From the UHGV virus genome UHGV-2050067: a stretch of DNA of 56,618 nucleotides, one strand, 5' to 3'. Source of the DNA: a virus. A program made the translations under genes and the position numbers. Positions 2,284 to 52,935 of the stretch are shown piece after piece (the stretch's first letter is position 1; every line of letters starts with the position of its first letter). The notes under the pieces were generated by a model. The model ran no database searches and had not been told where the DNA came from. It saw only the letters and a program-made list of their open reading frames with translations.

Positions 2284-4101
2284 TCAATGGTGAAATAAAC
2301 CTTTAACCTTGCTAAAGAATCCGTCTTCTGGCTTTTTATCGAGCCGGTACAGTAATTCTTTTACTTTGTCTTGCAATGCCATTATCAGCTTACGATAACG
2401 TTCATGATTGCGCTGTTGACGCTGTTTCAGGTCGCCCATGTACCGTTTTTGTGCTGCCCGGCGTTGCATGTTGCGAGCAATCAGTTTGTTATATCTGTCT
2501 GATAGTTGGTTATAGCCAGATTGTAAGATGTTCACATTATTTTGCAGTTCCAGTTTATCATCCTCAAGTTCTGCCACTTTAAGCTGATAGCCCTTGATAA
2601 CTAGAGCCTTGTTGCTTGCCTCCTGTTGTTGCGCTTTGATTGTTTCCTTCGCTTCTGCCAGATCTGTACGAATGTCGTTGATTGTTTGTTTGTCTGCCGC
2701 AGCTTTCGCTTTTGCGTCGTCGTTATTTGCAGCGTTGACCTTTTGTCTTAGTTCGCAATTAGTTTTAACCAGATTGTCGCGCTCACTTTCTAGCTTCTGG
2801 CGTTTACCCTGTTCGTCACCAAATGCCTTATTCGCCTTGCTGTATTGGTGTTTCCAATAATCAACGCGGAGTTGGTAGCTGTCGCGATCTTCTCTCGCTA
2901 TGTTGAGCACTCCATGTAATTCCTTGATTTGTCCCTCCAGCGTTTTTACCTGGCATTTAAGATCTCCCACCTGTTTGCTATCTGTTTGCTGCGCAATAGC
3001 CGCGCTGATAGGGTTGTCTTTAAATTTGCGAAAAGCTACTGATAAATCAACCCTGTCCTTTTCCGCTCCTATCCGTGCCACGATCATTCCTGCGATCTCA
3101 AGCGGTGCATATCCTTTTTTGATCTGCATGTCACATTGTTCAGTGCAATAAATATAGCCAGGTAATTTATTCAAGCTTTCAATGCGGTGGCGTAATTCAT
3201 CCTCATTAATACCATACGCCGCAGCAATATCCATCAGATTGATTTCATCGGCGTCATTAACGCTAATATTATGACCGTGAAATTTGAATACTCGCGGTAA
3301 CTCATGTTCATGCGGTTCCGTGTTACTTTCTTGTTTCATTTCGTCACCCTTGTAATAACGCTGTTTTATGCGCTCCGCTTCTTCTGGTGAGATATAATCA
3401 GGGAAGTGGTTCATTTGCTTACCGTAGTATCTAATTTCGCCGTTGATGCGCTCTTTTATTGCGTCGTTAATATTATCGAAATAACCAAAGCCGTGATTTA
3501 TTGTATTAACTTTAATTGTTGCTTCCCATTTATTTTTCGCCTTATTCCATAGAACGCCCTTGATACCGCTATTTCCCCAAGGCTTACGTTTTATGCCTCT
3601 TTCGCCGCGTGATATTAATTTCAGGTTTTCAATTTTCGCGCATGAATTATCGCCGTTTTCTATTACATACCCATCAGGAATAGGGCCGTTAAACATTTCC
3701 CACACAACGCGATGCAGTTGATAATAGCGATCTTTTACACCGATTTGCAAACGTTCATAATCAGTGCCTTTTTTGCATTTAAACCCGCGAATTATATCGC
3801 CTGGTTTAATACGACATTTCCCACGCCCCCTAGTCACCTTACTAATCAGAAAACCATCAGGATGATAATCAAACAGTTCAGGCCAATTTTCCGCGCACTG
3901 GCTGCAATCAGCGTACTGAATATCGCCAGCTTCCACCGCTGTTATTTCCTTCCAATAGCCACCGGCCACCATGCGTACAAACTCGCTTTCTTTACCCCAA
4001 TGATTCCACGTTTGATATTTACGCTTCCGCATAAACACCATTCCTTCATCAATTTTTGCAAACAATTTACTTCCTCTTATCGATATAAAATATCTAGACA
4101 T
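2284..4101 (-). CDS. HNH_3-like/AP2-domain homing-endonuclease-like protein with long C-terminal coiled coil
   Basis: 605-aa ORF; HRVVWEMFNGPIPDGYVIENGDNSCAKIENLKL matches the HNH_3 pattern but lacks the catalytic His-Asp; GIKGVLWNKAKNKWEATI is AP2-like; C-terminal ~300 aa heptad-rich. Confidence 0.55.
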   Translation of the reverse strand: MSRYFISIRGSKLFAKIDEGMVFMRKRKYQTWNHWGKESEFVRMVAGGYWKEITAVEAGDIQYADCSQCAENWPELFDYHPDGFLISKVTRGRGKCRIKPGDIIRGFKCKKGTDYERLQIGVKDRYYQLHRVVWEMFNGPIPDGYVIENGDNSCAKIENLKLISRGERGIKRKPWGNSGIKGVLWNKAKNKWEATIKVNTINHGFGYFDNINDAIKERINGEIRYYGKQMNHFPDYISPEEAERIKQRYYKGDEMKQESNTEPHEHELPRVFKFHGHNISVNDADEINLMDIAAAYGINEDELRHRIESLNKLPGYIYCTEQCDMQIKKGYAPLEIAGMIVARIGAEKDRVDLSVAFRKFKDNPISAAIAQQTDSKQVGDLKCQVKTLEGQIKELHGVLNIAREDRDSYQLRVDYWKHQYSKANKAFGDEQGKRQKLESERDNLVKTNCELRQKVNAANNDDAKAKAAADKQTINDIRTDLAEAKETIKAQQQEASNKALVIKGYQLKVAELEDDKLELQNNVNILQSGYNQLSDRYNKLIARNMQRRAAQKRYMGDLKQRQQRNHERYRKLIMALQDKVKELLYRLDKKPEDGFFSKVKGLFHH

Positions 4102-49009: not shown

Positions 49010-51214
49010 ATGATTTACACAACTGGAACAATTGCCATCAACGGCAATACTGTTACAGGCACGGGAACAAACTTTTCCGCGCCGCTTTCTCTTATTCGTG
49101 TAGGTTGCACGCTCATTGCTGTTGGCAATCCGGTACAGATCTTTACCATCACAGAAATTAAAAGCGGCACTGAACTGTCAGTGACGCCAGCGGCTAACCC
49201 CGCCATCCCTGCCGGGACAAAATTCAGCATCCTGCTATCTGACTCGATCTCAGTTGATGGGCTTGCTCAGGATGTGGCTGAAACCCTGCGTTACTACCAG
49301 GGCAAGGAAACAGAGATCGCCGCCGCTGTCGAGTGGTGGGAGGATTTTGGCGGCGAAGGTCAGTTGGATCAGCTTCTTACCAACATTCGCGCAGAGACAG
49401 CCAAATCAACCGCCAACGCTCAAAAAACAGGATCCGACAAAAACGCAGCAGAAGCGTCAAAAACAGCGGCTGCAAAATCCGCCACGGCAGCGAAAACATC
49501 AGAAACCAACGCTAAGGCAAGTGAGACGGCAGCGAAAACAAGCGAAACCAACGCCAAAACATCAGAGAACAGGGCGCAAAAATATCTGAATCAAATGGGA
49601 AGGCTTACCAGCCCAATGGTCCAATGTGCTTGGCCTGTTAATACTAGCGGTAATGGCGCTTACGTTAAGATTGCTAAACTTAGCGATCCAAAGTTTTCAG
49701 AGTGCCACTTAACGCTAATGGTTACAAATGGCGGTGGCTACGGTTTAAGTTACGGGAATATTGACTTTATAGAGATCTCCGCTCGAGATCTTAACGACAC
49801 AGGCGAAGTAACCAGTGAAAATATATCTAAATTTTTAAGTATTCGCCGACTCGGTTCACCAAACCTTCCCAATAATAGTCAAATGCGTTACGGCCTGGTT
49901 AAAGGTGACGGCTATATCGAGGTCTGGTGCTACCAGCGATCTTATATTCAAGGCACAAAAGTAGCGGTGCTGGCGCAGACTGGCAACACGGAATTATACA
50001 TTCCTGAAGGATTTGTTAAACAAGACAATGCACCTTCAGGATTTATTGAAAGCCCAGCAGCAAGGATTTACGACCAGGTAAACAAACCTACTAAAGCAGA
50101 TTTAGGCCTTTCTAATGCTATGCTTATAGGCGCTTTTGGTCTTGGCGGTAGCGGTCTTACTTTGGATGGTAAAATGACCGATAAGGAACTACTACAAGAG
50201 CTAAGGGCGAAAGGTGGGTGTTTCTGGAGGTCAGGAAAACCAACAGGTAGCGAATCAACAATTTTCAGCCACGGTTCTGGTATATTCTCGCGGTGCGGCG
50301 ATACGTGGTCAGCTATTAATATCGATTACGAAAGCGGTAGAGTAAAGATTTACTCTAGTAACGATAATAGACTCAACAATGGTACTTTTAACATAAATGA
50401 GCTATACGGAACCAAATACAAGCCGTCGAAATCGGATGTTGGACTTGGTAACGTAACTAACGATGCGCAGGTGAAAAAATCCGGCGACATTATGTCAGGT
50501 GATCTGTCGATCACTAAAGCAACACCTTCACTATACCTGCGTTCAAAAAGTGGAACCGCCCATGTATGGTTCCAAAATGAGGATCAGTCGGAACGCGGCG
50601 TTATTTTTGCGCCTACAAATACTGATACGCTTGGAGAAGTTCACATCAGGGCTAAAAACGCAAAAGGTGAAACAAACGGTGATCTTATTGTTCGCCACGA
50701 TGGGAGGGTTGAAGTCCGTGATCTCTCAGTAGAGTATAAGATTAAAAGCGCCACCGCAGAAGTTAGCGGTAATATCACATGCCAGACACTTCACCAATCA
50801 TCTGACCGCGACCTTAAAGATAACATTCAGGTTATAGGTGAAGCCACTGAATTAATCCGCAAAATGAACGGGTACACCTACACGCTCAAGGAAAACGGCC
50901 TTCCTTATGCTGGCGTTATTGCACAGGAAGTAATGGAGGCGCTACCGGAAGCCGTAGGATCGTTTACTCGTTACGGTGAAGAATTGCAGGGTCCGACCGT
51001 TGACGGCAACGAGCTACGAGAAGAAACACGTTACCTTAATGTTGACTATGCGGCGGTGACTGGTTTACTTGTCCAGGTGGCACGCGAAACGGATAACCGC
51101 GTCACCGAACTGGAAGAGGAGAACGCAAGCCTGAAAGCTAACATTGCCGCAATGGATGAGCGGATAGCAAAACTTGAAGCGCTTATCAGTCAGTTGACCG
51201 GAAGCGAAGAATAA
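49010..51214 (+). CDS. tail fiber protein with C-terminal intramolecular chaperone (S74-type) domain
   Basis: 734 aa; Ala/Thr-rich repeats (KTSETNAKASETAAKTSETNAKTSE); C-terminal DLKDNIQVIGEATELIRKMNGYTYTLKENGLPYAGVIAQEV and final coiled coil typical of autoproteolytic chaperone domains. Confidence 0.75.
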   Translation: MIYTTGTIAINGNTVTGTGTNFSAPLSLIRVGCTLIAVGNPVQIFTITEIKSGTELSVTPAANPAIPAGTKFSILLSDSISVDGLAQDVAETLRYYQGKETEIAAAVEWWEDFGGEGQLDQLLTNIRAETAKSTANAQKTGSDKNAAEASKTAAAKSATAAKTSETNAKASETAAKTSETNAKTSENRAQKYLNQMGRLTSPMVQCAWPVNTSGNGAYVKIAKLSDPKFSECHLTLMVTNGGGYGLSYGNIDFIEISARDLNDTGEVTSENISKFLSIRRLGSPNLPNNSQMRYGLVKGDGYIEVWCYQRSYIQGTKVAVLAQTGNTELYIPEGFVKQDNAPSGFIESPAARIYDQVNKPTKADLGLSNAMLIGAFGLGGSGLTLDGKMTDKELLQELRAKGGCFWRSGKPTGSESTIFSHGSGIFSRCGDTWSAINIDYESGRVKIYSSNDNRLNNGTFNINELYGTKYKPSKSDVGLGNVTNDAQVKKSGDIMSGDLSITKATPSLYLRSKSGTAHVWFQNEDQSERGVIFAPTNTDTLGEVHIRAKNAKGETNGDLIVRHDGRVEVRDLSVEYKIKSATAEVSGNITCQTLHQSSDRDLKDNIQVIGEATELIRKMNGYTYTLKENGLPYAGVIAQEVMEALPEAVGSFTRYGEELQGPTVDGNELREETRYLNVDYAAVTGLLVQVARETDNRVTELEEENASLKANIAAMDERIAKLEALISQLTGSEE

Positions 51215-51243
51215 GAGGTGATGTGCGAAGAACATCGCCGCGC

Positions 51244-51273
51244 GAAACGAGGCTAACGCCTCGTTTCTTTTTG
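51244..51273 (+). terminator. rho-independent terminator after the tail fiber gene
   Basis: gaaacgaggc-taac-gcctcgtttc hairpin followed by ttttt. Confidence 0.7.
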
Positions 51274-51535
51274 TGTACCAAATAGTGACCAAATACCCAA
51301 AACCAAAAACAAAAGCACTGCAACATACTGTTTTATAAATTATTATTCACAAAGCTAACCATTCCAGACAGTAACGATTCGTGGTGTTCAATCCCGTTCA
51401 GACTCGTTCACGGTTGATAAAAAATATCATTTAAATTCACTAAGTTACATCTCAATCATCCTGTCGTGTGTTTAAATCCGTTCAATGGTGTTAATATCCG
51501 TTCAGATAAAACTGTGTACCAAATCGTGACCAAAA
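51272..51535. other. attP-like / prophage junction region with direct repeats and candidate integrase arm sites
   Basis: 22-bp direct repeats tgtgtaccaaat(a/c)gtgaccaaa at 51272-51293 and 51514-51535; TCCGTTCA-type motifs at about 51393, 51405, 51478, 51498; AT-rich; directly upstream of int. Confidence 0.45.
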
Positions 51536-51550
51536 AAAAGAGGTATCAGA

Positions 51551-52765
51551 ATGCTGACGGATACGAAATTACGCGCAATAGCAAACAAGCCATATGACGG
51601 CCCGAACGAGATAGCGGATCGCGACGGCTTGTCTGCCAGGATAAGCCCGAAGGGGAAAATTATTTTCCAGTTCAGGTACAGGTTCAACGGTAAGCCTGTA
51701 AGGATGAAGATTGGCGATTACGGCAGTATGACATTGAAAGATGCACGCTACGCGGTGGCAGAATACAAAGAGCTATTAGCGAAGGGGAAAAACCCAACTG
51801 TTTCAGTAAAGCAAGCGATAAATATTGAGCGTGGCAAATTAACAATAAGCGCCATTGTGAGTGACTATTTATCCCTGCCGAACGTTATTAAGCTGGTTGC
51901 ATATAATGACGTCAGGAGCGCGCTTAAGCGCCATGTTGTCGATAAATTCGGTGAGTATATTGCCGATGATGTCAGCACTAAACAATGGATGGACATATTC
52001 GGCGAGATCACTGCGGCGGGCCACGCGGTTACGGCTGGGCTGATACTCAAGCGAATGAAGATTGTTGTGAACAGCGCTATCCGGCGCGGGCTAATGACCA
52101 GTACAGCGATAAACAATATCAGGGTTGTTGACGTAGGCGAAAATTATGCGGTTGGCGAGCGTTATTTATCGTGCGATGAAATAGGCCATTTCTGGCGAAC
52201 GGTGGATGATTCGCAGATCTACCGTCAGAACAAGATAGCATTAAAGCTATTATTGCTAACCGGGTGCAGGGTGGGGGAGTTGCAGAAAATGAGAAGGGAA
52301 CACCTCGACCTGGACAACGGAGTATGGACCGTCCCGGCGGCGGTGGCGAAGACAAGAAGTGAAATCAGGCGTGGATTATCAGATTTGTCGATAAAAATGC
52401 TCAGGGAGGTATTATCCTCCCATGAGTATGATTATGTGTTCCCGCCAGTGATTAACGGAGGGAACAGACCAGTAAACGCATCAGTGATAAAAGTAGCTGC
52501 AATCTTCGTGCGTAAAAGGATGGGAGGCAAATCATGGTCCTGTCACGACCTCCGCAGGACGTGCCGTACACACCTTTCAGCTATAGGTGTTCCGGTACAT
52601 GTCGCGGAAAAGGTATTAGGCCATTCACTCAGGGGAATACTGGCAGTGTACGACAAATATGATTATCTTGATGAACAAAAGGAGGCGTTAAATAAATTTG
52701 CGGATTACGTCTTATCCCTGGCTGGCGTTAATCCGATCTTATCAAAGAACCGCATCACCTCCTGA
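51551..52765 (+). CDS. int: tyrosine integrase (P4-type)
   Basis: 404 aa; arm-binding-like N-terminus; catalytic region with GCRVGELQKMRREHLD (Arg), HDLRRTCRTH (His-x-x-Arg), VLGHS, VYDKYDY (Tyr). Confidence 0.9.
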   Translation: MLTDTKLRAIANKPYDGPNEIADRDGLSARISPKGKIIFQFRYRFNGKPVRMKIGDYGSMTLKDARYAVAEYKELLAKGKNPTVSVKQAINIERGKLTISAIVSDYLSLPNVIKLVAYNDVRSALKRHVVDKFGEYIADDVSTKQWMDIFGEITAAGHAVTAGLILKRMKIVVNSAIRRGLMTSTAINNIRVVDVGENYAVGERYLSCDEIGHFWRTVDDSQIYRQNKIALKLLLLTGCRVGELQKMRREHLDLDNGVWTVPAAVAKTRSEIRRGLSDLSIKMLREVLSSHEYDYVFPPVINGGNRPVNASVIKVAAIFVRKRMGGKSWSCHDLRRTCRTHLSAIGVPVHVAEKVLGHSLRGILAVYDKYDYLDEQKEALNKFADYVLSLAGVNPILSKNRITS

Positions 52766-52935
52766 TAGCGGTACATGACGCCCCGCCCGGTCCCCAACAC
52801 ATCAACAGGGTCCGGGAATGGAGTTCCGTTTTCCTCCCACTTTTTACGCCATGAATAGAACGTTCCCCTGCTAATTCCCCCAAGCATACGGCAGATGGCA
52901 GGGCGACTAAGAAGAATTGTTGCCGTCTTATCCAT
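52705..52935 (-). CDS. AlpA-family excisionase / transcriptional regulator
   Basis: 76 aa; RPAICRMLGGISRGTFYSWRKKWEENGTPFPDPV matches the AlpA-type HTH pattern; convergent with and overlapping the int 3' end by about 61 bp. Confidence 0.65.
   Translation of the reverse strand: MDKTATILLSRPAICRMLGGISRGTFYSWRKKWEENGTPFPDPVDVLGTGRGVMYRYQEVMRFFDKIGLTPARDKT

Follow-up and report, generated by a model that had tools for sequence, protein, structure and literature searches.

In phage lambda, three adjacent arm sites lie at a spacing of about 10 bp, and the excisionase sites X1, X1.5 and X2 form a row in which a weaker site separates two strong ones that lie 20 bp apart; IHF sites are also part of its attP. 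The sites bound by excisionases (RDFs) are typically direct repeats one helical turn apart that are bound cooperatively (PMC7498355). For IntS and TorI of the KplE1 prophage, overlap of binding sites with the int promoter and repression of int have both been demonstrated, the int promoter lying inside attL (PMC2951348). IntS of ICEMlSymR7A, a member of the P4 family, is a second case in which repression of int has been demonstrated, a precedent for autoregulation, by an integrase and its RDF, of an int promoter inside attL, and has an experimentally supported arm-site consensus, TGKTGGTATC (PMC11963761). Among temperate coliphages, the mEpimmI group has four integrase types with a conserved N-terminal region; types Ia and Ib are assigned to ydaM, type II to abgT and type III to mppA, three genes given as about 7 kb from one another, and for mEp021 PCR has verified integration in the 5' part of ydaM, as dgcM was formerly called (PMC11893012).

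The DNA analysed here, called the window throughout, is a whole 56.6-kb stretch of viral sequence. That it contains an attP with its core at 51363-51371 is as good as certain. It is also likely that the region 51272-51534 is the complete attP of a temperate coliphage of the mEp021 group (mEpimmI, integrase type Ib), in which a pair of 22-mers serve as arm-type sites and two repeat arrays as RDF sites. The features of the locus are as follows.

51244-51267, + strand: intrinsic terminator hairpin of the tail-fibre gene, with a 10-bp stem, six GC pairs and a T-run.
51272-51293, + strand: P-arm 22-mer TGTGTACCAAATAGTGACCAAA, made of tandem units TGTGTACCAAA and (T)AGTGACCAAA; kept at the prophage attR.
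51294-51362, no strand assigned: inner P arm, with an A-tract run (CCCAAAACCAAAAACAAAAG) and, at 51329-51347, a block conserved in the type I alignment, TGTTTTATAA.T.ATTATT.
51363-51371, no strand assigned: core (common core, crossover region) TCCAGACAG, 9 bp, identical in attP, attB, attL and attR.
51381-51410, + strand: array A, three 10-bp-phased units, GTGGTGTTCA, ATCCCGTTCA and GACTCGTTCA, ending in GTTCA; proposed RDF (Xis) sites.
51465-51504, + strand: array B, four 10-bp-phased units, CGTGTGTTTA, AATCCGTTCA, ATGGTGTTAA and TATCCGTTCA; proposed RDF sites.
51489-51497, + strand: extended -10-like element TGTTAATAT, candidate int promoter, inside array B and invariant in types Ia and Ib.
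51513-51534, + strand: P'-arm 22-mer TGTGTACCAAATCGTGACCAAA, ending 16 nt before the int ATG; kept at attL.
51551-52765, + strand: int, encoding a 404-aa tyrosine integrase, with the Shine-Dalgarno sequence AAGAGG at 51539-51544.
52705-52935, - strand: gene for a 76-aa helix-turn-helix protein, the proposed excisionase (RDF), convergent with int and overlapping its 3' end.

The gene on the left of the site (49010-51214) encodes a tail-fibre protein with a Peptidase_S74 domain, and the first 22-mer directly follows its terminator hairpin, in agreement with the original prediction. The T-run of this terminator extends into the first 22-mer. The DNA between the repeats had been described as AT-rich, which the composition bears out: the 219-bp inter-repeat segment 51294-51512 has a GC content of 34.2%, compared with 45.9% for the whole window. 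The original prediction had likewise seen no convincing tRNA 3' end. ARAGORN finds no tRNA or tmRNA gene in the window, and no Rfam family reaches its gathering score, the sole match being a sub-threshold CRISPR repeat (E 0.69). A tRNA-gene-targeting attP was discarded on this basis, and because attB lies inside dgcM.

Comparison with GenBank links the int-side half of the region to mEp554 (96% identical) and to mEp021 and mEp515 (91%), and the records of all three phages start at a point equivalent to window position ~51363-51366. In complete E. coli genomes the region occurs in two halves about 55 kb apart: window 51363-51560 adjoins dgcM, and window 51215-51371 adjoins the ynaN/zntB side. 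The switch between phage and host sequence falls exactly at TCCAGACAG, both in the attL of MIN12 and in the attR of MLI107, PAR and MIN12; the MIN12 prophage is 100% identical to the window on both sides. In the prophage state, host DNA lies directly to the left of the core. When the two host flanks are joined via one 9-mer, many E. coli genomes contain the resulting sequence uninterrupted and 100% identical, and this composite attB is found with at least 80% of its length in one piece in 5361 of 5426 E. coli genomes. The identity of the region as an attP and the position of its core are read directly from these junctions. Within the host, the core corresponds to nt 45-53 of the dgcM (ydaM) reading frame, i.e. 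codons 15-18.

Since the core lies between the two 22-mers, integration distributes them over the two junctions, the P-arm copy going to attR and the P'-arm copy to attL. The original prediction of an attP with core and arm-type sites is upheld in that an intact attP is present beside int and arm-type sites are the best reading of the 22-mers, but the 22-mer is not the core, the junctions lying at 51363-51371. A search of the host with the 22-mer had been suggested as the route to attB, and this route leads nowhere, for the 22-mer is missing from the attB locus even at 6 mismatches; with the junctions elsewhere as well, the 22-mer was rejected both as core and as attB. The comparison with empty sites that had been suggested as a check places the crossover elsewhere than the 22-mer, while the idea of an attP itself stands.

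Integration leaves dgcM without a start. Read from attL, the phage supplies no replacement 5' end: there is an in-frame TGA six codons upstream, and no ATG, GTG or TTG. Because the gene is split at codons 15-18 without a replacement start codon, lysogens should lose dgcM. This gene is a curli and biofilm regulator; the disruption itself is already in the literature.

To the left of the core, the inner P arm is a candidate bending or host-factor region on the strength of its sequence, and its A-tracts and the conserved AT-rich block at 51329-51347 may aid bending. Inspection by eye for IHF gave no clean WATCAANNNNTTR match and no convincing consensus site between the arm sites and the core.

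The 22-bp direct repeats named in the original prediction are real. They have the same orientation, 21 of their 22 bases are identical and their starts are 241 bp apart; the second begins at 51513 and not, as first given, at 51514, and its predicted distance of 16 nt from the int start is correct, the ATG being at 51551. No further copy exists in the window at up to 3 mismatches, and 100 dinucleotide shuffles yielded 0 matches. Each 22-mer is itself a tandem pair of ~11-bp units (GTGTACCAAA / GTGACCAAA), reading TGTGTACCAAA, a junction base and then GTGACCAAA, and within type I the only variation in the 22-mer is at this junction base between the units. At the level of sequence, both arms carry a repeated motif that is not the core. 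The distance from the start of the P pair to the core is 91 bp here and ~93 bp in type III.

The int product is a member of PHROG 1 (integrase). It carries PF13356 (Arm-DNA-bind_3, E 1.3e-20, residues 2-88), the P4-type N-terminal arm-DNA-binding domain, together with PF00589 (E 1.3e-21) and a sub-threshold match to Phage_int_M. As Int has an arm-binding domain of the PF13356 family, arm-type sites are to be expected, and the 22-mers are probably pairs of such sites, bound by this N-terminal domain.

Related integrase loci show how far this arrangement is conserved. Types Ia, Ib and II have the 22-mer on both arms. Its type III forms are the variants TGTGCACCATTA-TGTGTACCATAT and TGTGTACCATAT-TGTGCGCCAAAT, which are tandems of TGTG(T/C)(A/G)CCA(T/A)(A/T)T. 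A profile query made from an alignment of the four integrases found an extra set of ~45%-identical integrases, here called group V, in other phage contigs, in Citrobacter genomes and in one Escherichia sp. genome. The related loci are not phylogenetically independent. All group V loci have TGTGTACCAAAT-(T/C)G(T/C)GTACCAA at 50-52 nt upstream of int, and in the intact group V attP a second pair lies 230-231 bp further upstream, with flanks unrelated to those of the window phage. An Aeromonas integrase gene is preceded, at -55, by the tandem TGTGTACCAAAG-TGTGTACCAT.

The conservation of the repeats is accompanied by a conserved geometry, and both are observed directly. Every related integrase group has its int-proximal pair 24-52 nt upstream of int, and the pair-to-pair spacing is 241, 241, 231, 232, 231 and 230 bp, so that the spacing classes differ by about one helical turn, which suggests a helical-phase constraint. 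Between the pairs, the DNA of type III and group V matches the window at 52-54%, no better than shuffled sequence (54-56%), while the pairs are 71-88% identical. The type III core is TCTCTTTC, as read from the attR comparison and by eye, a 1-nt indel having upset the direct comparison of attL and attP. The tandem unit occurs 0 times in 481 kb of control flanks. It is also missing upstream of integrase genes with more divergent N-domains, with the exception of one weak, far-upstream match in locus L114. The tandem-unit pattern misses types I and II, in which the second unit is one base shorter, and these two types were scored by the 22-mer.

The integrases of the different types and of group V all have the arm-binding domain PF13356 in conserved form, and across types this N-domain is the best-conserved part of the protein (63-85% identity). 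The central domain is 32-44% identical, the catalytic domain 45-56%, and the small neighbouring protein, the proposed Xis, 43-58%. Because Xis is also homologous in all groups, conservation of the 22-mer would by itself leave Xis possible as its ligand; what argues against Xis in this role is that its recognition helix varies between types. It is from comparisons of this kind that we infer which protein binds which repeat.

The second class of repeats lies between the core and int. Four CGTTCA motifs had been noted in the original prediction; they are present, as part of a more ordered pattern: the + strand has seven GTT[C/T/A]A units, three at 51386, 51396 and 51406 and four at 51470, 51480, 51490 and 51500, which keep exactly to a 10-bp register. 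A search for GTTCA-N5-GTTCA with at most one mismatch, for which 3.8 matches are expected over the whole window, gave five matches window-wide, all of them within 51386-51504. Array A begins 10 bp to the right of the core and array B stops 9 bp before the P' 22-mer; both are confined to the int-side (P') arm, and the P arm has no copy. Strong and weak units alternate in array B, the strong ones (TCCGTTCA) being 20 bp apart with weaker ones between. The two strong units have changed in concert in type Ia, where each is CCGTACA. Analogous arrays with 10-11-bp phasing and other motifs are present in types II and III and in group V, the motif being CCGTTCA in type I, ATCGTGTCA in type II, GCGTAAAC in type III and TGTTTCA in group V.

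A candidate ligand for these arrays is encoded next to int. The single-sequence AlphaFold model of the 76-aa protein has a pLDDT of 82.5, and a fold search with this protein matches excisionases. At the sequence level, a profile search against the PDB found nothing significant (AlpA, E 0.86), and NCBIfam gave only a sub-threshold match to Xis_Gifsy_1 (E 0.004). Homologues of the protein occupy the equivalent position in every group, and their predicted recognition helix reads SRGTFYSWRKKW in type I, SKSAFFKLVKKW in type II, SRTTFRVWKMKW in type III and SRTTFYRKRKQW in group V. The module can be described as encoding a putative RDF together with helically phased direct-repeat sites on one arm.

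We lean towards reading the GTTCA arrays as excisionase (RDF) binding sites, a role suggested by their sequence and arrangement. The arrays fit RDF sites better than arm sites because they are confined to one arm, have a 10-bp phasing and change their motif between integrase types while the N-domain and the 22-mer are conserved; the earlier suggestion that the CGTTCA motifs are arm-type sites is not favoured on the same grounds. The array motif and the Xis recognition helix differ in parallel by type. As there are just four or five integrase/Xis/motif combinations, this covariation makes a thin case for the arrays and is suggestive only.

The reverse assignment, in which the GTTCA arrays are the arm-type Int sites, as with P'1-P'2-P'3 of lambda, and the 22-mers bind the excisionase, a regulator of int or a host factor, seems to us unlikely. 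Lambda does offer a precedent for three neighbouring arm sites about 10 bp apart, the arrays occupy the place between core and int where P' sites would be expected, and a 22-mer directly upstream of int could be an operator. The absence of any array copy from the P arm does not sit well with this assignment, however, and neither does the fact that the array motif is wholly different between types whose Int N-domains, including the conserved beta-strand residues, are still 63-85% identical. It is the 22-mer that tracks the N-domain across groups, and a recognition helix as variable between types as that of Xis is at odds with a conserved 22-mer as its target. We therefore retain the 22-mers as the probable arm-type sites.

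Two further readings deny the 22-mers a role in recombination by Int. They might be functionless, conserved edges of mosaic modules, that is, short homologies kept for, or left by, exchange of att/int cassettes. It is true that the homology that several type II prophages share with type I breaks off precisely where the first 22-mer ends (51293/51294), and two viral contigs, L070 and L104, show a clean deletion between the 22-mers. Passive scars, though, would not be expected to retain tandem units, orientation, a 230-241-bp spacing and a distance from int beside integrases that are 45% identical and flanks that are unrelated, nor would the junction base be the one place where they vary. Functional sites could moreover be used as recombination edges, and indeed this would be expected of them as a by-product; we consider the purely passive reading improbable. 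The same two contigs resemble "empty sites" with a single 22-mer, and with the direct repeats around an AT-rich segment they could suggest that a small element (a MITE or IS remnant), the present 240-bp segment, has inserted here with the 22-mers as its target-site duplication; the original prediction had allowed for boundaries of this sort. We consider this scarcely credible, and rejected it, because the segment holds the functional crossover core of every prophage examined, no terminal inverted repeats accompany the direct repeats, and the segment and its repeat have no second copy in the window. The same bracketed layout also recurs around unrelated inner DNA, and a duplication of 22 bp would be unusually long. 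L070 and L104 are identical to each other and have no att core, and the int gene of L104 is frameshifted, consistent with a degenerate deletion derivative; they are better explained by deletion, or possibly by assembly collapse, than as empty sites.

With the 22-mers as arm-type sites and the arrays as RDF sites, a mechanism can be proposed by analogy with lambda. Strand exchange takes place within the 9-bp core TCCAGACAG. The central and catalytic domains of Int would contact the core and its N-domain the two arm pairs, so that the protein would bridge arms and core in the intasome. For excision, the P' arm would be bent by the putative 76-aa excisionase bound cooperatively to the arrays. The same sites may also regulate int. 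Transcription of int runs away from the core, which means that in the prophage only the P' arm can hold its promoter, and the element TGTTAATAT is a candidate for it by sequence. Int bound at the P' 22-mer, just downstream of the candidate promoter and upstream of the start codon, would repress int, as would Xis bound on array B, which overlaps the candidate promoter. A simple consensus scan for a + strand sigma-70 promoter in the P' arm gave no match at threshold, and for that reason the negative autoregulation of int by Int and the RDF is a step that we infer, by analogy with described systems.

The comparison of types also prompts a more tentative suggestion, about which we are rather doubtful: that the 22-mer pairs and the Int N-domain form a constant "arm cassette", inside which the core, the core-binding and catalytic domains, and the RDF with its sites are swapped. 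If so, such swaps in the mEpimmI phages and their relatives would have retargeted integration to ydaM, abgT and mppA while the intasome geometry stayed fixed, with pairs 230-241 bp apart and the P pair ~91-93 bp away from the core, and the 22-mers would double as recombination edges for the exchange or loss of the core segment, as in L070 and L104. The group would then be a natural worked example of the re-programming of a heterobivalent integrase. The constancy of the arm pairs across different cores makes this a handy natural system for studying the evolution of target specificity in arm-dependent integrases and for building orthogonal integration tools.

The attP described here is an ordinary, neatly organised example of a thoroughly known kind of system. 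It resembles that of lambda in its length of ~240-260 bp, in a short core identical to attB and in a heterobivalent integrase with a separate N-terminal arm-binding domain. Both arms carry probable arm-type sites, neighbours being separated by about one helical turn, and the putative RDF sites are phased direct repeats on one arm only, array B resembling X1/X1.5/X2. It differs from lambda in that Int is of the P4-like PF13356 class and not of the family of the lambda Int N-domain, and in that its arm sites, for which binding is predicted from sequence, form two tandem pairs (2+2) where lambda has 2+3. The putative RDF arrays here are two in number and occupy the int-proximal arm; the direction of int is away from the core, and instead of an int-xis operon there is a convergent putative xis gene; and attB lies inside a protein-coding gene.

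In gene layout, there is a likeness to KplE1 (CPS-53), where int also sits beside attL and is transcribed away from it, with a promoter in an arm that carries both Int arm-type and RDF sites, an arrangement from which negative autoregulation by Int and the RDF is predicted, and where transcription of int and of the RDF gene is uncoupled (PMC2951348). KplE1 differs in targeting a tRNA gene, argW, in having unrelated site sequences, and in that repression has been demonstrated there and is proposed here (PMC2951348). With ICEMlSymR7A the likeness is in the arm sites, TGKTGGTATC and the reverse complement of the 22-mer unit sharing TTGGTA. ICEMlSymR7A, unlike the present system, has five single arm sites in place of two tandem pairs and resides in a tRNA gene, and its RdfS is without a clear consensus motif and is encoded far from intS (PMC11963761).

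A further close system is that of mEp021 and the mEpimmI phages, which belong to the same phage group, have the same 5' integration site in ydaM (dgcM) and the same four integrase types (PMC11893012). The integration site and the integrase types are already published. The main text of that report, PMC11893012, never uses the words attP, arm-type, direct repeat, excisionase or Xis; what is added here is the set of arm pairs, phased arrays, RDF candidate and conserved geometry. What had been published as an "insertion motif" can accordingly be extended to a full map of the attP, with a core, two arm pairs, two putative RDF arrays, a candidate promoter and a proposed RDF gene.

Integration of the window phage into dgcM, the gene of a curli regulator, supplies no replacement start codon, unlike that of type III phages into mppA. 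Upstream of the dgcM junction (window 51363-51420, minus strand), ATG, GTG and TTG are all absent, and an in-frame TGA lies six codons away. Integration therefore costs dgcM its promoter and its first approximately 15-17 codons. RefSeq annotates the dgcM remnant as 'frameshifted' in MIN12 and with an ATC start in PAR. A candidate promoter sits between arrays A and B, facing leftwards to the core; in a lysogen it would be directed into truncated dgcM.

Features at the attachment site of the window and at related loci (L-numbers)
Window 51363-51420, minus strand, and L002 2500-2520: dgcM junction read
Window 51455-51426, minus strand: promoter-like site, TTGAGA, 18 nt, AATGAT (consensus match only)
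L008 700-850: type III junction, attR of LSU61
L072 about 2771-2860: type III attP
L004 150-188: int-start/ORF locus of mEp010 (PP180001.1)
L001 101-232: int-start/ORF locus, mEp554_01
Window 51466-51597: ORF
Window 49010-51214: tail-fibre gene, with a C-terminal Peptidase_S74 intramolecular chaperone domain (residues 598-649)
L003: attR of MLI107, compared with hit H67
L070 (IMGVR_UViG_3300045988_076816) and L104 (IMGVR_UViG_3300045988_064823), about 2940-3003: viral contigs whose integrase is of type II

In type III phages, the P arm (the tail-fibre side of attP) encodes an ATG followed by MNKIMIYI(L/S)FLPLCI(I/M)SLS, which joins mppA in frame upon integration. In the fusion, the phage-encoded stretch takes the place of mppA's own start codon and the beginning of its signal peptide (native MKHSVSVTCCALLVSSISLS), so the split gene appears to have its 5' end rebuilt by the phage itself. 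PGAP annotates the hybrid reading frame as mppA.

On the int side, the conserved MLTDTKLR start lies only 2-4 nt past the end of the 22-mer direct repeat in type II phages, and this gap contains no Shine-Dalgarno sequence. The int start in the type II GenBank record is an ATG further upstream, which would place the 22-mer inside the coding sequence. In mEp554 and mEp010, small ORFs annotated as 'hypothetical protein' span the P' arm and cover parts of the arrays and the 22-mer; these are probably not genes.

L070 and L104 run from the tail-fibre terminator through one 22-mer directly to the int ATG, lacking the entire inter-repeat segment, att core included, as if the two identical 22-mers had recombined. 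The int of L104 additionally carries a frameshift near codon 326. Since both contigs stem from a single dataset and match exactly in this region, they represent either one event or an assembly collapse.

The last ~115 nt of the tail-fibre gene (from window 51100) and its terminator are common to prophages with other integrase types (~84-100% identity), and most hits include the first 22-mer. The tail-fibre gene itself is 3411 nt in MIN12 versus 2205 nt in the window, though attP is identical.

The attR of the MLI107 prophage has the P arm and core of type I, joined to the ydaM/zntB side, while the integrase at its other end is type II. This mixture suggests a hybrid or rearranged site, and fits the >7-kb host deletion noted previously (PMC11893012).

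The same paper is internally inconsistent on integrase subtype: the text of section 3.4 assigns mEp021, mEp515 and mEp554 to type Ia, whereas in Table 2 and the Discussion they are listed, with MIN12, under Ib. The core is 9 bp in the window (TCCAGACAG) versus 12 bp in PAR-type phages (TCCAGACAGGAC); by this feature, the window groups with mEp021 and MIN12.
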